Positions 1,513 to 14,494 of a stretch of DNA of 20,000 bases are shown here, piece after piece; within the stretch, counting starts at the first letter, position 1; every line of letters starts with the position of its first letter. The position numbers and the translations under genes were made by a program. This stretch comes from Patellaria atrata CBS 101060 (Eukaryota). The notes below the pieces were generated by a model that made no database searches, had not been told where the DNA came from, and saw only the letters and a list, made by a program, of their open reading frames with translations. The stretch lies in NCBI GenBank assembly GCA_010093705.1, contig MU006118.1, positions 175,552-195,551 on the forward strand, read 5' to 3'.

Positions 1513-1789
1513 AATTGTAACTCTAACAATTACATGATTACGCTGTGATATATATCGCAAACACGAGGGACCCCTCCGCTGGGTCCGTCAGGCCGCGATT
1601 CGATACAGTATTGTAAATGGATGCGAGGTGATGTTTCTTCATCATCATCCGGAGCTCTCGGTAGAGCTACAGTAGTTCTACCGGAAGCGGACGCTGATCC
1701 CCCAAGGCCGGCATCGATCATTCTTCCACATGCAACGACCTCAGCGAAGAAATCATTGATCTATCATACTAACAGACTAGATTAATACG
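1513..1789. promoter_or_regulatory. Short divergent (probably bidirectional) promoter between NT-C2 gene and TAD1
   Basis: Only 277 bp separate the opposed start codons. Contains the palindromic TATA-like element GATATATATC at 1547-1556. Confidence 0.5.
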
Positions 1790-3176
1790 ATGGCAGTAAC
1801 GCCGAATGCGATAGCGGATTGTGTTCTGTCAACATTCGATAGCCTCCCCGCCAAATGCAAACCACGACCTCGATATGACAACGCCCGCGAATGGACTCCC
1901 CTAAGTGGTATCGTTCTATGTAAAGGTCTCTCCATTAGCCGCAAAATCCCCATGTATAAAGGCTAAGTAAGCTACTAGATGGAGAGATGTTGACTTGCGT
2001 GGCTCTTGGGTAAAACTGCATTTATACCGGTCAGCAACCCTCAGCTGATTATCATTCACAGCACTGGTGCGAAATGTTTGCCGTTGTCGAAGATTCCCCG
2101 GGCTAAGGGTACCATACTACACGATTGGCATGCAGAAGTTCTAGCTATACGATCCTTCAATCTATTTCTCATACAGGAATGCGTACATCTTCTGGATGGA
2201 AAACAACAGTCAGATTTCATCAGACGCCGTACCGATACTGAAATCACAAAATCTGCCTTTCAGCCTTTTGAGATCAACGACAATATCGAAATTTACATGT
2301 ACTGCTCCGAGGCGCCATGCGGCGATGCAAGTATGGAATTGGTCATGGGAGCACAAGACGATCCCACTCCATGGGCGTTCCCGCAACCAGCACACTTATC
2401 TGTCTCTGGAGGTATCTCTACCGAAAATTCAACTATATTGAGTGGTCGAGGATATTTCTCAGAGGTGGGTATAGTAAGGCGTAAACCATGTGTGTTGACA
2501 GTCGGACAGGACTAGCAATCTCTTTTGAGTTGACGATCATACAGCTCGCCCTGACGCACCCCCTACCCTCAGTAAATCTTGCTCTGACAAACTTGCTTTG
2601 AAGCAATGTACGTCTCTGCTAAACTGTATTACATCTCTCCTTTTCCATCCCGGAAATGCGTACATCTACATGCTAGTGTTACCTAGCTCTCAATACGTCC
2701 CGAAAGCTACTGACCGGGCATTCGGTCCAGATGGACGTATGCTGGGCATAAATGATGCTCAAAGGATTGGCTGGCCGGATGGTTATTCTTTTCGTCCGTT
2801 TGCCATGAAAACAACAGAACGTGAATTCGCCTGGTCTAGACGTAATGGCGAAGGACGAGAGATGATTCCATGCAATTTGAGTGCTGTGTACACTCCTTAC
2901 TGTCAAGAGACTCTAGTTGGAGGCGTGCTACAGGGAAGGAAACAATCAGATTTCCGCGCTGCTAGTCGAACGTCTCGAAGGGGTTTGCTGCAATTGCTCC
3001 AGAATCACCATTCTCTACGGCTTGTTTTACCGAAGGGGTCAATTGGCTTGAGTTATACTGATCTGAAAAACTCTAGTTATGTTTGCGAATGGCGAAAGGT
3101 CAAGGATGATGTGAAAGCTAAAGCACTCAGGGGGTGGGTGTCAAACCAGAAAGACGAGGCCTGGAGTTTGAATTGA
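1790..3176 (+). CDS. TAD1: tRNA-specific adenosine deaminase 1 (Tad1/ADAT1 family), ~408 aa, exons 1790-1925, 1979-2009, 2062-2489, 2545-3176
   Basis: Deaminase motifs EWTPLSGIV, CVALGTGAKC, LHDWHAEVLA (Zn His plus catalytic Glu), YCSEAPCGDASM, VRRKPSRPDA and SKSCSDKL. No dsRBDs seen, so ADAT1 rather than ADAR. Exons sum to 1227 nt. Confidence 0.92.
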
Positions 3177-3723
3177 GGTAACAAAACACCATCAGATCAT
3201 ATACGGAGCCCCTTAGATGCATAAGTATAGTTAAACCCTGAGGAACATCTTTAAATAGTTGCTGTGAGGTCAAATATAAATCACGTGAGCGTAAAGGATC
3301 ACTGCGAGTTGTCCGTGGTTTGAAGCGGCTGCAGCCAGTCATTCTGAAGTTTACCCACTCTTGATAACGCCAATCTTAAGAGTTGATTGAGGATTGAGCG
3401 GAGCATACAATCACACCTCAGTCATTAGATATTCTTACGGAACAGGTAAGAGAAGACAAGCCCAACGCTAATTAACCCTTGAATGCTCCTCCCTTCACTC
3501 CGTCAGCTTCTACCGGGCCTTGAATCGGTGACCATATTTAATAATTGTGTATCTCTCACACGATCTGCTTCCAATCATGTGCTCACAAGTTTTCATGTCT
3601 CTCACCGTCACTTTTTGAAGGATATCAATCCATGCGTCTGACGTTCTTATATCTCCACTTCCTTACCCGCTTTACGTATCCTTCTTCCGAATTTCTATAC
3701 CATAACTCTACCATTCTATTATC

Positions 3724-4443
3724 ATGGCGTTATCTACCCAAACCGATAAATTTGATGCATTCCATCAGTTGGTAAAAGATCTCAGTAATATTTTGGGTCC
3801 ATCATCAGGTATTGACTCGGAAGATGTCAACCCTGAAGATATCCAGGAGTTGATGAAAAATTACACATCCACCTCATCTGAATGGGCACCATACGCATTC
3901 TCAGATACTACCAGAGCATATACCAGGAACCTCGTCGACAAGGGAAATGGAAAAAGCAACTTGGTATTTTATCCTCAACATTCTAGTTGCGACGATCAGA
4001 TACTGATACCTATCGCAGCTTGTCCTCGTATGGTCCCCTGGTCGAAGCAGCCCCGTACACGACCACGCCAATGCCCATTGTATCATGAAGGTCCTCCACG
4101 GTTCTCTGAAGGAAACTCTGTACGACTGGCCAGATCCAACCTTAACAGCCCCCTTGAAGGTCAAACGTGAGCGCACGCTTCAGTTAAACGAGGTCTCCTA
4201 CATGGCAGACACGCTAGGACTACACACAATATCCAACCCTGATCCCGACAACATCGCTGTCTCTCTGCATTGTAAGTCTTTTCATTGAGCAAGGAGTTCA
4301 TCAAGCATGCTAAAGGTCTCGAACCAGTGTATACTCCGCCGAATGCTGAGTTTTATGGCACTCTCACCTTCAACAAGGAGACAGGGCACTCATCTCACAT
4401 CAAACAATGTCAATTCTTTTCCGAACGAGGACACAAACTGTGA
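3724..4443 (+). CDS. CDO1: Cysteine dioxygenase type I, ~202 aa, exons 3724-3963, 4019-4271, 4328-4443
   Basis: Motifs [58 protein letters not shown] and AVSLHLYTPPN: 3-His iron site, cross-link Cys and S-H-Y triad. Exons sum to 609 nt. Confidence 0.96.
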
Positions 4444-4841: not shown

Positions 4842-7800
4842 ATGCAATCGGTGCTCTCTGAACTCGCGGCCAGTACCTCTCAATGGTCGTGGGTCACGGT
4901 ACCTGTGGCCTTCTTCGTAACATCCTGTATCTCAACAACCAAAACGCCTAGTCGGCACTCCCTCCTCATAAACGCGATTTCGTGGGCGTCCATATGGGCA
5001 TACGGCGTTGTACGAGCAGGAGTACGGACGACCTCCGACGATGAACGTAGGAGGAACCTAATATGGGTATCTGGCGCGTTATACGGACTTGCTTTGGCGT
5101 GTACAAGAGCGGCAATAGATGATGAGGGCGTACGGTGGATGAAGGTTATGACGCTGAGCCCTTCCTATCTTTATTATGGTAGTTAACACTTCAACAGTGC
5201 CTAATACCTGCGTTCGTTTACCTCTTCTCCCAATTGAACCTGAAATCTTTCCTCAATTCATCGAGCCATGAAGAATCAAAGCAACCAGAAAGCCCCCACC
5301 CATATGGAGCGAGATCACTGCTTACGGTTTCCACAATATGTTCTGGAGTTGTTCTGAATACTCCTTATATTACATCACCATCCGCGCTTCTGGGGCTGTG
5401 TTCGACCCTAACTCTAGCCCTATCTTTCGTCGTCCTCGAGTCTGGGTTTGCTGCATCCCCTGAAGAGAAGTATGGTGGAGCAGGCGGTTTCGTCCTTGCG
5501 AACGGTTCCTTTGCATATGAGCGGCGGACACAAGGCTCCAATTCGAAACGGGGCGCGTTCTACCTATGTATAAGAGACTTCGCCGCAATCGTTGTTCTAG
5601 TTTGCGGAGCATCGACATGGATCATGGAAAGCCATACTCTGGACGGATTGACTTGGTCTGACGGGTTGCGCAAGCTGGATCCAAAGACAATCGAGCTGAA
5701 CCCAGAGCTTGCGGACCTTTCTGGGCAATGGAAGCTGGAACAGTTGGTCGTGAATGCCTTCAGGGGCTTTTGGGCGACTATCTTCACCACGGCGACCAAT
5801 GCATTACTGATGCTAGTAGTCTCCCAACAAAAATCTTTGAAGACTAGTTTAATCGTTCTAGCAGCAGTGCTTGCTGCATTTTTGCCCTCGAATCTCGGAA
5901 TATCTCAACTCTGGTTTACACTGCTTACTCTTACTTCAGGATATGCTTTCTTCTCAAGCGAAGCTGCATCCTCGCCCGTGAAAGGGTTTGGGGGAAGAAG
6001 ATTGAATGCAAGAAATATTCTTACGTTTCTCACCGTAACATCGGTTGCCTCACTAGTTATGGGCGTTTCTCGCAAATCAACTGGGATCACCATGTCTGGG
6101 TTAGCGATACCTACAAGCTATATAGGAACCCCTATATCGCCCCTCGAGCCTATGGAATTGTCCGATAAGAAAATTCATCCTATTGAATATCTCATTGCGA
6201 AGTCTGAAAAGAGCTTTCAGGAGACCCTTTCAAGACAGTCACAGACTCTAGACCAAGCTGTAAAAGAGTATAAGAGACGGTATCAGATGAATCCGCCACC
6301 AAACTTTGATCGTTGGTATGAGTTGGCTAAGAGGAAGAACGTGGTACTTATCGACGAGTTTGACTTAATCCATGAACTTCTACTCCCGTTCTGGGCTCTC
6401 AAACCGTCCACTCTTAGGTCTCGAGTGCGGGAAGCACTTGGAATGGACGGTAATTCTCTCATAGCCCTAACCATCCGCGAAGGGCAAGCGGTGAAAGTCG
6501 AAGGCGGCCCTGACTGGCAACAGGCTGCAACGCTAGGAATGGTCAAAGGCTTTGTACAACATTTGCCAGATATAGATTTGGCCTTTAACATCCATGACGA
6601 ACCACGTATCGTCGTTCCTCACGATGAGCTTGCTCGTTATGTGGAAATCGCAAAGACGAAAAATATCCCGGCGTCTTTTTCGCAAAAGCGGCCACAGAAC
6701 ACCTTCTCGGCTCGTCCTGATGATATGAATGACGGTCGAAGGATCTTAGAGTACAAAACTAGCCGCTTCAACGTCTTTGCGCATCAGTCTGTTTGGTCAA
6801 CCTCTAGATTGTCATGCTCGCTTGACAGTCCGGCACGTTCCTACGAAGAAACCAGCTCCGACAATAAGACTATGTATGCTTTGGGTGAGCTCGGCTTCAT
6901 ATACAACCATACAGCCATGTCGGATATCTGCAACTCTCCTTCCTTACGTCACACCCTCGGATTCTTCGACCGACCCAATGCGTTCAATGTCGCCCACGAT
7001 CTCATCCCCATATTCTCCCAGAGCAAAGTAAGTAGCTTTCAGGATATCCTATATCCCAGTCCGTGGTACTGGTTCAACATGGTCTCTTACAACGCCACCC
7101 GCGCCAAGGACTGGGACAAGAAGGATAACACAGTATATTGGAGGGGAACAAATACAGGAGGTTATAGCAAGTATGGTGCATGGCGCCATCATCATCGACA
7201 GCACTTCGTCGCCAGCGTCAACGCCCCTGACACAACCCGCATCTTAACCAACCTTGGAACCGCAGTTGCACCCGTCTGGAATGCCCAAGAGGTCCCAAGA
7301 CAAACCTTCAAGGACCTAATAGACGTCAAATTCACGGATATCGGACAGTGTGACGACATTGACTGTGCTCAACAGCGCGAATTCTTCCGCTTAACGGATC
7401 CAACAGATATGCAGGATGCATGGTCCTATAAACACTTGGTTGACCTGGACGGCAACGCTTTCTCCGGCCGTTTTTATGCGTTTCTAAAGAGCAAGTCTGC
7501 GGTGTATAAGATGGCGGTTTTCAGGGAGTGGCATCAGGAGTGGTTGAGGCCGTGGATGCATTATGTGCCCCTTGGCTTTGACGGGGGCGAGTGGATGGAG
7601 ACGTTCAGGTATTTCGCGAACGAGAACAAGGGCGAAGACTTTGCGGAGAAGTTAGCGCTAGGAGGGCAGCAGTGGGCTAATGCCGTCTTAAGGAACGAAG
7701 ATATGGAGGTTTGGTTTTTTAGGCTGCTTTTGGAGTATGTGGTTCCCCTTTTGTGTTTGAGTAAGAGAAATTTCTAACCTAGTGATAGGTATGGAAGACT

Positions 7801-8642: not shown

Positions 8643-10805
8643 ATGGGTAAACAGTAAGTACTGAAATGTTCAGACAGATCCCAAGCAAACATGTCTAATG
8701 AGTCTCATAGAATTGGGGGAGCATTTATCAAATTTCCTGAGACTGCTAAAATAGCAAATGCCGTTAAGGATAAAGGAGTCTCTGTGAGTAATCCTAAAGC
8801 ATATATACTAGAATATCGAGACTTATCAAATCTAGGAGCTCATCCACCAATGGAAAGAGGGGATGAAAAAGAAGGGCTATCCTGCCCGTTGGGGTGATGA
8901 GGTGGAACAGTTATGTACCGTATGCATCCCTTACTTGTGACTAATAGTACTAGGTCGAATACATGATTCTCAAGTTTGACGACACTAACGAGAGAGTGGA
9001 GGTAACGTTGGAACAAACTACTATCCTAAAGGGGCTTGAAGAAATGGTCGATGCAGCCATGGAGAAAGGTCGCCCAGTTTCGCAGCAAGAGTACCAGTTC
9101 TACCTACAATTACAATCACGATGTTTTCTAATTTGAAAGCAGTCCTGGGGTCACGGCTGGTTATACACCTGAATTTGCTGCTTATATGGTCGAGTCAGAG
9201 CCAAATTCACCGTATGGAAGCTCCGTTAGTGATTTATTGAAGGTTGAAACGAACATGTTCCAGAGGTGTGACCTTCTAGTACTCGAACGCGGCATAAACT
9301 AACAGTTCACCGCTAGACGCAAGGCTATAAAGGCTCATGCAGATACCGGCTCCTGGCCGTTCACCTTATCTATGTTCCCAGGGCTGAAGGCTGATTATAA
9401 TTCCAAAGATCCTAGTGAACTGGAAATCGACGAACCATTAGCTAGCCAAGAAGTGCGTTTCAAAGCTGCCGACAGCAATATCAGAAGTCGACGGAACGAT
9501 GAGGGGGTTGCTAAGGTTCCACTCTTCGTAGATATTAACACTCTTTCCTCGAAAGGGTCATTCCCCTCGTATATTGATACAGACACAAAGTCAGTACTTC
9601 TACAAGATGAAAGCATTCTTTTCGGTCCTGGACACTGTGGCTTTCAGATTACATTTGGAGCAGCAGACGAAGATGATGCTCGGCGGTTACATGACCAGTT
9701 AATTCCGCTGGGTCCTGTCATGCTGACCTTGACGGCATCCACTCCAATATACAGGGGCTTCCTTGTCGATACTGATGTACGTTGGAAGCAAATCCAATAT
9801 TTCGTTGACGATAGAACGAAGACTGAAAGGGAACAAGAGGCGAAGACGGATTATGATGCAGTAACAGGTCCGAGGTGGTCCACTAACAACACTTACATTG
9901 CTAATGACCCACGTCTTCATCCTGAGCATCAGAAATCCCAACTCCAAGTGAATGAGCAAGTTCAAAGGAGGCTCGAAGAGGAAGGAATGGACTCTATTCT
10001 CGCGAAGCATTTCGCTCACGATTTTCTACGTGATCCGATAGTCATGTCTGAGGAGGACATTAAGGAACATAGTACAAAAGACGAGGAGCCGGCTCTTCCG
10101 AACGAATCCCACGATGCTAGTGTGGGTACTGATCATATCGATGCTATCGAAGGGACTTTGTATCCGCACGTCAGATTCAAGGTTCCGCCTGCTAATGACC
10201 CGAGGATCGGATACCGTGTTGAGTTTAGGCCGATGGAGACGCAGTTCACGGACTTTGAGAATGCTGCGTTATCTATATTTTTGAGACTGCTGACTCTGGC
10301 GTTGAGAAAATCCGATAAGGATATGTATGTTCCGTTGCGGGTTGTTTATGATAATATGGAGAAGGCCCACCCCAGAGATGCAGTCCGTAGCTCGAAGTTC
10401 CTCTGGAGAGTAGATACCAAAGAGCACTCAGGAGAAAACGGTGCTGAGCAAAGGAATGGTGACTCCGGTGAAGCAGACGTTGTGCCGATGAAGATCGATG
10501 AAATTTTCAACGGCTCTTCACGTCACCGTGGGTTGTTAGATCTTGTCTATGAATATATGGAGTCGGAGGGATACACCTCCACTCAACGTCAACAGCTTGA
10601 GCCATACTTGGACTTGGTTAGAGGGAGATCTGATGGTACTCTAGCCACTGCTGCAAGATGGATGAGGGAATACGCCCAAGGACACGAGCAATACCGCAAG
10701 GACAGCTATGTGAATGCGAAGATTTGTTACGATATAATGAGTGAAGTCCGGAGTATGATGAACGGAGAACGGGAGAACGGGATGTTCAAACGATGTATCG
10801 CTTGA
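8643..10805 (+). CDS. Divergent glutamate-cysteine ligase catalytic subunit-like protein (eukaryotic GCS family), ~632 aa, exons 8643-8653, 8711-8783, 8836-8901, 8954-9090, 9143-9265, 9317-10805
   Basis: GCL landmarks WGDE|VEY, PEFAAYMVESEPNSPY, NIRSRR, QITF, LTLTASTPIYRGFLVDTDVRW, VDDRT, LAKHFAH.FLRDP, RVEFRPMETQFTDFENAA and GTLATAARWMRE. Exons sum to 1899 nt with no frameshift or stop. Symbol withheld because the active-site divergence argues against orthology with GSH1. The donor of intron 4 (9091 vs 9097) is uncertain. Confidence 0.9.
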
Positions 10806-11341: not shown

Positions 11342-11587
11342 GGTACATGTATATGAGATGGAAGAAGGAGAGTTGTTGATGACTTCAGACGGAGACGAAC
11401 ATTCATGGGTTACCGTGTTTCGAGTTTCGAGTTTCGGCTGCCTTGTTTTGTTTCTCATTGGACATCACAACATCAACTCCTCCCGTCTTCTTCAATACTG
11501 TACCGTACAACAACTTCTCTATAAAAACATTCTGCCTGTCGCGAACAAAGGGCAAGGGGAAGCTCTAAAGAAGTCAAGGAGTTTGTC
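11342..11587. promoter_or_regulatory. Short divergent promoter between methyltransferase-like gene and PFF1
   Basis: 246 bp between opposed ATGs, with TATAAAA at 11520-11526 upstream of PFF1. Confidence 0.5.
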
Positions 11588-14494
11588 ATGACTCGGTCAG
11601 CTTTCCGGCCAGTATGGGTTATCCTCATCACGGCGGCTGTTTACATTGCACTATTTACATCACTATTGGTTACTCATCTCAAAGTTCCTGATGCACCGAG
11701 CAGTGCCGCGCCAGCAGCTGGTATTAACTTGACAGAAGCCTCCCATGATCTTAAAGTTTTGACAAGCCACTTTCATCCATATAACAGTGACGCGAACGAT
11801 GTCGTCCGGAATTGGCTTCTGCACAGGATCGAGCAAATACTGAAGAATAACAATGCCTCTTTTGATAGAGAACTTCTTGGACATACGGAACTAAAGCTTC
11901 AGAGGGAAGGGCTTTCGAGAACTCCAGGTGTGACAGTATATAATGACCTAAACTCCAACATCACGTTTTCATCGGGCAACCTACCCGTATATTTTGAGGG
12001 TACGAACATCATTGTCAGAATTCGAGGATCAGAAACCACGGAAAAACATGGAGGAGTCTTGGTTAATGCCCACTACGACAGCGTTTCCACTGGATACGGT
12101 GCTACGGATGATGGTGTTGGTGTGATCACACTTCTCCAACTCCTATCTCACTTCTCCGTCCCAGAAAAGAAGCCGCCTAAACGGGACCTGATTCTACTCT
12201 TCAACAACGGCGAGGAAGATTTCCTTAACGGTGCTAAAGCTTTCTTGCGACATCCCGTGTCTAAGATACCTCGTACCTTCCTCAACCTAGAGGGTGCTGG
12301 AGCTGGTGGACGAGCAATTCTCTTCAGATCAACGGATACGGAAGTAACACGATCATATAAGAACAGTCCATACCCATATGGAAGTATCATCACAGGCGAC
12401 GGTTTCAAACGTGGCATGATACGCTCCCAGACCGATTATATTGTATTCAATGGAGACCTGGGATTGCGGGGCTTGGACGTAGCTTTCTTTGAACCACGTG
12501 CAAGATACCATACTCAAGAGGATGATGCCAGAGACACCTCTATAAAATCTATTTGGCATATGCTTTCAGCTTCGATTGCAACAACTGAGGCCCTTACATC
12601 GGATACAAGCTCAGAGTTCGATGGCCCTGTCCGGAATAATAACAGAGTTGACAGTGGGCATGGGTCTAATGCCGTCTGGTTCGACATTTTCGGAAGAACA
12701 TTTGGCGTTCTCAAGTTACATACTTTATTTGCTCTTTCAGTCACCTTCCTCGTAGTGACTCCGATTCTTCTAATTGTTTTAAGTGTCATTTTGAGCAAGG
12801 TGGACAAATGGTACCTGTTCTCGAGAAAACATTACATTCATTCAACAGATGATGATGCACCTATACAACTTAAGGGATGGCATGGCTTCTTCTGCGATCC
12901 AATCGCGTTCATTGTCGCTACAGCTGCTGTCGTCGGACTTTCGTACCTGTTTGTGAAGATCAACCCCTTCATAGTCTACAGTAGCGAATACTCTGTGTGG
13001 GCTTCATTCCTTACTGCGTTTTTCTGTCTGAACTGGTTTCTACTTCGAGGAGCGGACGCAATGCGTCCCTCTGCTCTGCAACGCATATACTCCCTCATGT
13101 GGACTTACATCGGAGCCTACATTCTCCTTGTCATAGCTACTGTGGCTGAGAACAACTTCTCATTAGGGGGAGTTTACTTCATTGTCATATACTTTGCAGC
13201 ATCGTTCGTCGCCTTGCTGTTAGCTTACCTCGAACTGTTCGCTTTACCAAAGAAATCCGCATTACCTGATCCGTCAGCAGAATCTGAAGAGGATTCAGAA
13301 ACTGTTTCTAGCAGGCCACAAACGGGTACCACCGCGAACAATGATGATTCTGCTAATGAGCGCACCTCGCTACTCTCGGGGAACCGCCAAAGAACAACGT
13401 TCGCTCGGCACGGTGGCAGCCGTAGACACTCTGCGGACGATGGTACATCTACAGCTGTTGGGGAACCTCTGGCTGAACATGCCGCGTACGGTGGAGAACA
13501 AGAGTGGAGCGAGTGCCTTCCAACCTGGCTTTGGATCCCCGAATTCCTCGTTCTTGCCCCTATTCCAATTATACTAGTTGGTCAACTCGGCTTGCTCCTC
13601 ACAGCAGCACTCCGCCAAACGCTCGCCGACGGCTCACCTCCTCTTCCGGTCTATCTATTCATAGCATTTTTCGGAATCTTACTTCTGATACCCCTCTCAC
13701 CCTTCATCCACAGATATACATACCATATTCCTCTATTTCTCTTCCTTATATTCTTCGGCACTCTGATCTATAACCTCACTGCGTTCCCCTTCTCCCCTAA
13801 CAACAGGCTCAAAATATACTTTTACCAATCGGTGGATCTCGACTCGGGGCTGAGTACCGTAAAACTCATCCTACCTGAACCCTTTCACCACCCTATCCTC
13901 GCGAGTCTGCCGTCCACCTTCGAGAATCCCGCTAAATGCGGTCCCAGCACAGTTGGAAACCGCAAAGAATTGTACGAATGCAACTACACCGGCCCTGCTC
14001 CAAACCTCTATGAGCCTCTACCTATTGGCATCCCGCCCGAGAAGGCTTACAACAAACTCGTTACCTTTACGGTTGAAAGAGTAAATGCGACGAATAGCAC
14101 CGACCCAAGACTACCGAAGAATGTGGCGGATTTCACGATAGACGCCTACCACACGCGCTCGTGTCGTCTCTACTTCGCCGCTCCAGTGTCCTATCTCCAC
14201 GTTGCTGGGTCCTCCTCTTCCAATCCTCAAGATCCACCATTACTGGGGAAGGAAGGTGCAAAGGAGTTCCGAATATGGCGTCGCGACTGGAAAAAGGAGT
14301 GGAATGTGCGAGTTGGATGGGATGGTAAAAAGGGGACGGGATTGAGTGGTAGAGTGACGTGTCTATGGGCGGATGTGAACGCGCTGGGGACCGTGCCGGC
14401 GTTTGATGAGGTGGTACAGTATGTACCGACATGGGTGGTGGTGAGTAAGATGATGGATGGGATCGTGGAGGGGGGGAAGGCTTTCAATGTATAG
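11588..14494 (+). CDS. PFF1: Vacuolar membrane protease, peptidase M28 (Pff1/ERMP1-like), 968 aa, single exon
   Basis: N-terminal TM, then HPYNS, VLVNAHYDSV, GATDDGVG, FNNGEEDFLNGA, FLNLEGAGAGGRA, TDY and RARYHTQED, followed by multiple TM helices, an acidic/Ser-rich loop, FPFSPNNRLKIYF and a C-terminal luminal domain. Confidence 0.93.
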   Translation: MTRSAFRPVWVILITAAVYIALFTSLLVTHLKVPDAPSSAAPAAGINLTEASHDLKVLTSHFHPYNSDANDVVRNWLLHRIEQILKNNNASFDRELLGHTELKLQREGLSRTPGVTVYNDLNSNITFSSGNLPVYFEGTNIIVRIRGSETTEKHGGVLVNAHYDSVSTGYGATDDGVGVITLLQLLSHFSVPEKKPPKRDLILLFNNGEEDFLNGAKAFLRHPVSKIPRTFLNLEGAGAGGRAILFRSTDTEVTRSYKNSPYPYGSIITGDGFKRGMIRSQTDYIVFNGDLGLRGLDVAFFEPRARYHTQEDDARDTSIKSIWHMLSASIATTEALTSDTSSEFDGPVRNNNRVDSGHGSNAVWFDIFGRTFGVLKLHTLFALSVTFLVVTPILLIVLSVILSKVDKWYLFSRKHYIHSTDDDAPIQLKGWHGFFCDPIAFIVATAAVVGLSYLFVKINPFIVYSSEYSVWASFLTAFFCLNWFLLRGADAMRPSALQRIYSLMWTYIGAYILLVIATVAENNFSLGGVYFIVIYFAASFVALLLAYLELFALPKKSALPDPSAESEEDSETVSSRPQTGTTANNDDSANERTSLLSGNRQRTTFARHGGSRRHSADDGTSTAVGEPLAEHAAYGGEQEWSECLPTWLWIPEFLVLAPIPIILVGQLGLLLTAALRQTLADGSPPLPVYLFIAFFGILLLIPLSPFIHRYTYHIPLFLFLIFFGTLIYNLTAFPFSPNNRLKIYFYQSVDLDSGLSTVKLILPEPFHHPILASLPSTFENPAKCGPSTVGNRKELYECNYTGPAPNLYEPLPIGIPPEKAYNKLVTFTVERVNATNSTDPRLPKNVADFTIDAYHTRSCRLYFAAPVSYLHVAGSSSSNPQDPPLLGKEGAKEFRIWRRDWKKEWNVRVGWDGKKGTGLSGRVTCLWADVNALGTVPAFDEVVQYVPTWVVVSKMMDGIVEGGKAFNV

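Follow-up and report, generated by a model that had tools for sequence, protein, structure and literature searches.

To our knowledge, every characterized member of the Pfam family GCS (PF03074), to which the eukaryote-type glutamate–cysteine ligase (GCL) catalytic subunits belong, makes gamma-glutamylcysteine. How the enzyme of Saccharomyces cerevisiae, Gsh1, holds its ligands is set out in a published account (PMC5613772), a secondary source from which we take the roles of D49, E52, E96, E103, K451, and R472. In that account Asp49 and Lys451 contact ADP; Glu52, Arg472, and Tyr362 contact L-glutamate, with the hydroxyl of Tyr362 hydrogen bonded to the α-carboxylate and Glu52 touching both the amino group and Mg; Glu96 and Trp445 contact the cysteine moiety, at its amino group and its carbonyl, respectively; and Mg is contacted by Glu52, Glu96, and Glu103. 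Here we describe a gene for a divergent member of the family in the fungus Patellaria atrata CBS 101060 (a Dothideomycete of the order Patellariales), located in a 20,000-nucleotide stretch of contig MU006118.1 (GenBank assembly GCA_010093705.1, forward-strand positions 175,552 to 195,551) that we refer to as the window and whose first nucleotide is position 1 in all coordinates below. Sequence comparisons confirmed the product of this gene, P0001, as a real, conserved, and rewired paralog beside a canonical GCL, and they partly support the interpretation that its specificity has been altered.

Gene Structure and Identity

The gene occupies positions 8643–10805 of the forward strand and is intact, with six predicted exons giving a coding sequence of 1899 nt for 632 residues plus a stop codon; it has no internal stop codons or frameshifts, and its five introns (51–57 nt) all run from GT to AG. 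The spliced translation is identical to a database protein, the 632-residue "GCS-domain-containing protein" P0001 of P. atrata CBS 101060, which the sixth exon, used as a query, matched at 100% identity over 100% of the query. The two sequence runs that span the gene are unspliced DNA contigs and may be the source assembly. The N-terminus of the protein, MGKQIGGA, resembles the MGKQIDGA of its Aplosporella ortholog (P0003). The Pfam GCS domain was recognized at window positions 9318–10802 (forward strand) with an E-value of 1.4e-110 and a score of 370.5 bits (cut-off 25), covering profile positions 5–371 of 372; a chance pattern is ruled out as the source of this match. An uninterrupted frame, splice sites of good quality, and the full catalytic set described below argue against the gene being a pseudogene.

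Catalytic Residues and Predicted Fold

P0001 aligned with the yeast Gsh1 chain 3ig5_A at an E-value of 6.7e-60 (phmmer), and all yeast numbering given here was taken from this alignment. Ten out of ten residues compared are identical, D49, E50, E52, E105, E112, Q247, R292, K425, E439, and R441 of P0001 corresponding to yeast D49, E50, E52, E96, E103, Q268, R313, K451, E470, and R472, respectively. Yeast E50, Q268, R313, and E470 are residues that we take to have metal-, ATP-, or glutamate-activating roles. When only the eight yeast contact residues named in the opening paragraph are considered, six are kept, the exceptions being Tyr362, which is Trp324 in P0001, and Trp445, which is Tyr419. 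Work on the Trypanosoma brucei and Leishmania enzymes, as cited in the account above, ties the residues equivalent to R292 (yeast R313), E52, Q247, and R441 to glutamate binding (PMC5613772).

An AlphaFold2 model of P0001, built from an alignment of 108 sequences, had a pLDDT of 92.2 and a pTM of 0.93. The best match to the model among solved structures was the yeast GCL, 3ig5 (E-value 9.6e-42, TMq 0.81, TMt 0.77), the plant and bacterial GCLs and YbdK being far weaker matches (TMq ~0.4). By profile, fold, and catalytic residues, P0001 is a member of the eukaryote-type GCL catalytic subunit family. An original prediction, made from the letters of the DNA, had proposed a full-length, six-exon gene with a GCL fold and had named its catalytic residues; the gene model, the domain match, and the structural match bear out the former, and the named residues are indeed conserved, aligning with yeast D49/E50/E52, E96/E103, Q268, R313, and E470/R472.

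Rewritten Substrate-Site Motifs

At the substrate site, where canonical GCLs read GMGSCCLQ, KSRY, and STNWQH, P0001 reads GPGHCGFQ, PRW, and GTLYPH (Table 1), and none of the substrate-site motifs of functional GCLs (FGMG[CS][CS]CLQ, K-S-R-Y, and H-F-E-N-x-Q-S-T-N-W-Q) is present in it. Canonical fungal GCLs also conserve a loop of ~25 residues ahead of the GxG motif that P0001 has in shortened form or lacks. The canonical motifs FGMG[CS][CS]CLQ, KSRY, HFENxQSTNWQ, and HxRFxxLxxNIR are nearly unvaried in the choanoflagellate, glaucophyte, spider, and canonical fungal rows, which represent four eukaryotic lineages at about supergroup level, and G-M-G was found in 257 of 278 matches to the first motif, themselves drawn from 356 GCS proteins (a set made up mostly of fungal GCLs). 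The original prediction had taken these motifs to be nearly invariant, which they proved to be, and had located their altered counterparts to within one base of the intervals in Table 1.

The remodeling touches both the glutamate and the cysteine halves of the pocket, because Tyr362 is a glutamate-side residue, as the methionine of GMG would also be if it is equivalent to Leishmania Met322, a match suggested by position, as Met322 precedes Gln328 (yeast Gln268) by six residues. The substrate-site motifs have changed, as the original prediction had it, although its description of a rebuilt acceptor pocket is too narrow given that Tyr362 is a glutamate contact in the published account (PMC5613772).

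A Clade of GPGHCG Proteins

Ten relatives of P0001 (P0002–P0011) share 42–50% overall identity with it; in the search with the sixth exon they matched at 40–49%, followed by canonical fungal GCLs at 37–40% (among the best 120 of 568 matches). Together with P0001 they form a rare clade of eleven from Patellaria, Aplosporella prunicola (Botryosphaeriales), and Coniosporium apollinis, all Dothideomycetes, and from metagenome or Logan assemblies (eight proteins). All eleven have G-[PG]-G-H-C-G-[FL]-Q and a tryptophan at the position of Tyr362. The clade is also marked by G-T-x-[W]-P-H-[VI]-R-[FL]-K, for which P0011 reads D-S-I-W-P-H, and P0001 has each of the clade motifs except for a tyrosine in place of the tryptophan of G-T-x-W-P-H. 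The FGPG/PRW/TLYP clade that the original prediction had envisaged was found as an FGPGHCG/PRW/G-T-x-W-P-H clade, the tyrosine of TLYP (residue 419, yeast W445) being peculiar to Patellaria while the other ten of the eleven members keep the tryptophan.

Throughout the clade GPGHCG takes the place of GMGSCC, W that of Y362, G-T-(I/V/L/F)-W-P that of S-T-N-W-Q, and E-x-R-Y/F that of H-x-R-F; the change of H to E at residue 182 and that of Y to W at residue 324 were each seen in 9/9 clade rows. Mean column identity in the clade alignment is 46%, yet the rewritten motifs are conserved: G240, G242, H243, C244, G245, and Q247 are invariant among the eleven members, P420, H421, R423, and K425 are likewise invariant with G416, T417, and W419 nearly so, and a histidine that replaces the tyrosine of LYDQL (H262) is again invariant.

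A GPGHCG-type motif was present in exactly 11 of the 468 proteins collected. When a profile of the clade was used for searching, ten members scored 645–761 bits and the next best protein, a canonical GCL, scored 524, more than 120 bits lower. The search scored 8000 candidates that shared words with the query and missed one known member (P0010), so that eleven is a lower bound, and an exhaustive scan of representatives at 50% identity added no further member among the best 150 of 2181 matches. Scanning metagenomes with a clade-specific, back-translated motif yielded two short contigs that are 99.7% identical over 1736 nt and represent one organism. Positions 1593–3328 of one (L001) overlap with 1–1736 of the other (L002, reverse complement), and the two jointly encode one clade member, whose residues 49–627 form one uninterrupted tblastn match in which introns 3–5 of the Patellaria gene are absent. 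No neighboring gene was recognizable on either of these two contigs.

The Canonical GCL of Patellaria atrata and the Wider Paralog Group

P. atrata CBS 101060 has a canonical GCL as well (P0144, 664 residues, likewise named "GCS-domain-containing protein"), as the original prediction had required for its reading, encoded on a different contig of 1.22 Mb. P0144 is 78% identical to the Aulographum GCL P0013 that served as query (among the best 120 of 4034 matches), has every canonical motif, and shares 39% identity with P0001. The presence of this protein in the same species makes the window gene a genuine second paralog rather than the GSH1 ortholog, and in our trees P0001 lies outside the canonical clade (100/100 support) and inside a group of paralogs. 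As judged by its sequence, P0001 is not the housekeeping GCL.

Three trees were built: a FastTree tree of 160 of the 169 chosen rows (nine rows of <430 residues were left out), a quick IQ-TREE tree of 54 rows, and a careful tree of 39 rows under LG+C20+F+G4, rooted on eight non-fungal representatives that included the choanoflagellate, glaucophyte, and spider. All three agree in uniting the Pezizomycotina sequences and in dividing them into canonical GCLs and paralogs. In the careful tree Pezizomycotina are supported at 100/99, the canonical GCLs at 100/100 with end branches of ~0.1, and the paralog group at 94/90; in the quick tree the paralog group comprises 33 rows with an SH-aLRT support of 98. 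The paralog group is long-branched, with end branches four to nine times the length of those of canonical GCLs, and is sister to the canonical fungal GCLs. P0001 belongs within it to a tree clade of 11 rows (99/98) made up of the GPGHCG sequences and of more diverged proteins from Diplodia corticola and Neofusicoccum parvum. The placement of the P0001 clade is probably not an artifact, because long-branch attraction would be expected to draw such sequences to the outgroup and not to the fungal GCLs.

The paralog rows span Dothideomycetes, Eurotiomycetes, Leotiomycetes, and lichen-formers. They include Aspergillus niger An08g01270 (P0215), which is conserved across at least 56 cluster members in the black aspergilli, and proteins of A. 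ambiguus, A. avenaceus, A. bertholletiae, and A. oleicola, along with those of Eremomyces bilateralis (P0249), Cladophialophora yegresii (P0226), Coleophoma crateriformis (P0014), Cyphellophora europaea (P0302), Vezdaea acicularis, and Diplodia corticola (P0211). Like the window clade, these other paralogs keep the catalytic motifs, and it is again the substrate-site motifs that vary; histidine also replaces the tyrosine of LYDQL in 12 of 14 rows. They differ in what the substrate-site motifs have become: the first motif reads LGVGNCCIQ in the A. niger protein, and either FGPGACGLQ or FGAGGCGLQ among the Eremomyces relatives, against GPGHCG[FL]Q with PRW and G-T-x-W-P-H in the window clade. 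The simplest history suggested by these sequences is that the gene was duplicated long ago in Pezizomycotina and that the copy then changed fast and was retained in a patchy manner. We did not find a published function or description of the fungal GCL paralogs or of An08g01270 in the literature within reach of our search, beyond which lay most subscription journals.

Constraint Versus Decay

Within the paralog group as a whole the substrate motifs vary subclade by subclade while WGDExEY, PE[FYW], DxDxRW, and GWRVEFRxME stay unchanged, and we consider this contrast to be the most telling pattern as to whether the sequences suggest decay or a new constraint. Column counts describe the window clade in the same terms. 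There are 102 columns conserved at ≥85% in 129 canonical rows, of which the clade keeps 81, varies at 17, and swaps four for a new residue that the clade in turn conserves (H-to-E182, C-to-G245, Y-to-W324, and S-to-G416); under a looser comparison, L-to-A188 and Y-to-H262 join these four. Departures at near-universal columns number seven of the 66 covered in P0001, three to six in its clade mates, and zero in P0144. Within its subclade, the Patellaria copy has diverged the most, with private changes Q251G, W419Y, W436Y, A575S, G161K, and S172L. Taken together, the canonical GCL in the same species, the clade that keeps the new motifs, and the preserved scaffold and fold fit retention under selection better than decay; the original prediction had preferred neofunctionalization to decay.

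Proposed Function and Alternatives

The likeliest reading, to which we give an even chance, is that P0001 is an active, ATP-dependent, GCL-derived glutamate ligase in which a remodeled pocket selects a nucleophile other than cysteine. Such an enzyme would bind ATP-Mg and L-glutamate (or a close acidic analog), form a gamma-acyl phosphate as GCL does, and transfer the acyl group to a nucleophilic amine, the remodeled pocket picking an amino acid or amine other than L-cysteine; the product would be a gamma-glutamyl conjugate with a lineage-specific and dispensable metabolic role. The retained residues support the part of this proposal that concerns an active ATP- and Mg-dependent ligase still activating a glutamate-like carboxylate. 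That the preferred nucleophile is no longer cysteine would follow from which motifs have changed, and here we put the chances at about even.

Several points weigh against the non-cysteine proposal. We found no enzymology on the GPGHCG clade in the literature, and the genes flanking P0001 are of ordinary housekeeping types. The replacement of Tyr362 by tryptophan and that of the GMG methionine by proline sit on the glutamate side (the latter if the match to Leishmania Met322 holds) and could affect donor use or kinetics without switching the acceptor; a tryptophan is still able to donate a hydrogen bond, and the cysteine-contacting Trp445 is kept in ten of the eleven clade members. Canonical GCLs, moreover, already take some cysteine analogs. 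As for the Patellaria copy itself, its end branch is the longest of the subclade in the careful tree (0.95, against 0.39–0.74), and its private Q251G, W419Y, and W436Y fall at near-invariant positions, the first of which corresponds, by its spacing, to an adenine contact of the Leishmania model.

An alternative that we regard as unlikely but deserving of serious attention is a second GCL isozyme that is still a gamma-glutamylcysteine synthetase and differs in kinetics or regulation (loss of glutathione feedback, Km, or redox control). It would be in keeping with the full catalytic set, including Glu96, with the Trp445 retained across most of the clade, with the one cysteine left in the GPGHCG motif, and with the glutamate-side role of Tyr362 (and of the methionine, should its match by spacing be right); glutathione competes at that site. 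What tells against the isozyme is that the altered motifs are conserved from glaucophytes to animals in makers of gamma-glutamylcysteine, and are thus unlikely to be dispensable, that the paralogs have end branches several times longer than those of canonical GCLs, and that retention is patchy (three named genomes), which speaks against a general housekeeping need. The different alterations of the same sites in different subclades likewise look like a diversification of specificity rather than a single regulatory adaptation. A changed donor, whereby a different acidic amino acid, or a glutamate that is N-substituted or part of a peptide, would be joined to an amine or a thiol-amino acid, could be read from the clade-wide loss of the tyrosine that binds the α-carboxylate and from the proline that replaces the GMG methionine (by spacing, Leishmania Met322). 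We think a changed donor quite improbable, however, since R292 (yeast R313), E52, Q247, and R441 are all invariant, and these are the residues that the work cited in PMC5613772 ties to glutamate binding.

The long end branch and the private substitutions at Q251, W419, and W436 are also what might be expected if the Patellaria copy were a decaying or non-catalytic relic of the old duplication, either a pseudoenzyme or an incipient pseudogene. This we hold to be very improbable: the five introns have correct boundaries and leave the 1899-nt frame open, 59 of the 66 near-universal columns are kept with all catalytic residues intact, most of the private changes are conservative, the model confidently resembles a GCL, and orthologs in other Dothideomycetes share the architecture. 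A broader version of the non-cysteine proposal extends it to the whole paralog group, as a Pezizomycotina radiation of GCL-derived ligases in which each subclade would have been re-tooled for a distinct gamma-glutamyl or acyl conjugate and the Patellaria/Aplosporella/Coniosporium clade would use a non-cysteine nucleophile to make a fungal metabolite. On the present sequences we view this broader version as possible but somewhat doubtful.

Genomic Neighborhood and Annotation

The features of the gene and its closest neighbors are collected in Table 1. A cysteine dioxygenase gene lies 4.4 kb upstream of the GCL paralog on the same strand, and it could hint at a link to sulfur-amino-acid metabolism (cysteine sulfinate, hypotaurine) or be a coincidence. 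The gene convergent to the paralog encodes P0381, which belongs to a widespread eukaryotic cluster in the ESM Atlas ("Pc16g13840") and whose fold resembles that of class-I SAM methyltransferases, with a TM of 0.70 to bacterial ones; its gene appears to be of housekeeping type and is not specific to the clade. Other flanking genes encode an NT-C2 protein, a Tad1-like adenosine deaminase, methyltransferases, and SLS1. A reading of the locus as a biosynthetic cluster was rejected, as the neighbors are of housekeeping types.

Table 1. Positions in the window of the exons and motifs of the P. atrata GCL paralog and of neighboring genes (ORF, open reading frame).
Feature	Position (nt)	Strand	Residues	Remarks
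Cysteine dioxygenase, two exons	3706–4288	+		Pfam CDO_I, E-values 6e-11 and 2e-25 on two ORF pieces
GT90-family glycosyltransferase, large single ORF	5183–7777	+		N-terminal multi-pass membrane region; looks ordinary
PFF1-type vacuolar membrane M28 protease, large single ORF	11585–14494	+		Looks ordinary
Exon 1	8643–8653	+		Start codon; MGK plus 2 nt
Exon 2	8711–8783	+		Bordered by GTAAGT..TAG (57 nt) and GTGAGT..TAG (52 nt) introns
Exon 3	8836–8901	+		Closes with W47-G48-D49-E50 (8890–8901), the ATP-contact Asp and first metal-site Glu
Exon 4	8954–9090	+		Opens with V51-E52-Y53 (8954–8962)
Exon 5	9143–9265	+		Contains P104-E105-F...M-V-E112 (9165–9191)
Exon 6, including stop codon	9317–10805	+		Pfam GCS domain; 495 residues
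EVRFKAADSNIR	9450–9485	+	182–193	Altered version of canonical H-x-R-F-P-T-L-A-A-N-I-R
ESILFGPGHCGFQ	9609–9647	+	235–247	Altered version of DAMAFGMGSCCLQ; Q247 (yeast Q268) retained
R292 of DVRW	9780–9782	+	292	Aligned with yeast R313; invariant across all alignments
P-R-W	9870–9878	+	322–324	W324 in place of yeast Y362
HIDAIEGTLYPHVRFKVPP	10134–10190	+	410–428	Altered version of HFENLQSTNWQHMRFKPPP; Y419 is yeast W445, K425 is yeast K451
E439-F440-R441 of RVEFRP	10221–10229	+	439–441	Aligned with yeast E470 and R472; invariant
P0381, 170 residues	10832–11341	−		No Pfam match; convergent to the GCL paralog, stop codons ~24 nt apart

In the course of these comparisons we noted that many canonical fungal GCLs, among them P0012, P0020, P0054, P0125, and P0180, bear the NCBI name "Zn finger-containing GTPase-Activating Protein for ARF" or "ADP-ribosylation factor GTPase-activating protein gcs1". 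Apparently gcs1, the gene name for gamma-glutamylcysteine synthetase, was confused with GCS1 of yeast, which encodes an ARF GAP, and the error was propagated. The canonical GCLs of Ophiobolus disseminans and Bipolaris maydis (P0122 and P0143) are annotated at ~1130 residues as fusions to a GATA zinc finger (PF00320), and these are probably merged models of two adjacent genes.

Comparison with Known Systems

If the non-cysteine proposal for P0001 is true, the GPGHCG clade would be a first sign that the GCL scaffold has been reused for other ligations, and it would point to unknown fungal gamma-glutamyl metabolites and, for the production of gamma-glutamyl peptides or amides, to new biocatalysts. 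The clade also calls for caution in annotation, as such proteins now carry the label "glutamate--cysteine ligase", by which their genes would be assigned to the glutathione pathway.

The nearest published parallel that we found concerns the second enzyme of the same pathway, a housekeeping ligase that has reportedly been duplicated and neofunctionalized in plant-parasitic nematodes, where it gave rise to glutathione-synthetase-like effectors (PMC5919673). Those effectors are secreted animal proteins of the ATP-grasp glutathione synthetase family and have no sequence relationship to P0001. A precedent for a duplicated housekeeping ligase of the GS/GCL fold class that activates glutamate with ATP and whose acceptor site has been remodeled to glutamylate another amine is offered by the glutamine synthetase (GS)-like gamma-glutamyl-amine ligases, such as the 1-naphthylamine enzyme of Pseudomonas sp. 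JS3066 (8X6Z/8WWU), and chains of this type appear among the distant fold matches to the P0001 model (ranks 28, 40, and 50, TMq ~0.25). PuuA and the theanine-type enzymes are further ligases of the GS-like kind. Unlike P0001, these ligases belong to the GS family rather than to PF03074 and are bacterial, and the resemblance is remote. The closest systems remain yeast Gsh1 (3IG5/3IG8/3LVV/3LVW) and human GCLC, with which P0001, derived from a duplication of a fungal GCL, shares the Pfam domain, the fold, and the residues that bind Mg and ATP and activate glutamate. P0001 differs from them in being a non-ortholog that has evolved four to nine times faster, with Tyr362 changed to Trp, GMG[CS][CS]C to GPGHCG, and STNWQ to GT(x)[W/Y]P.

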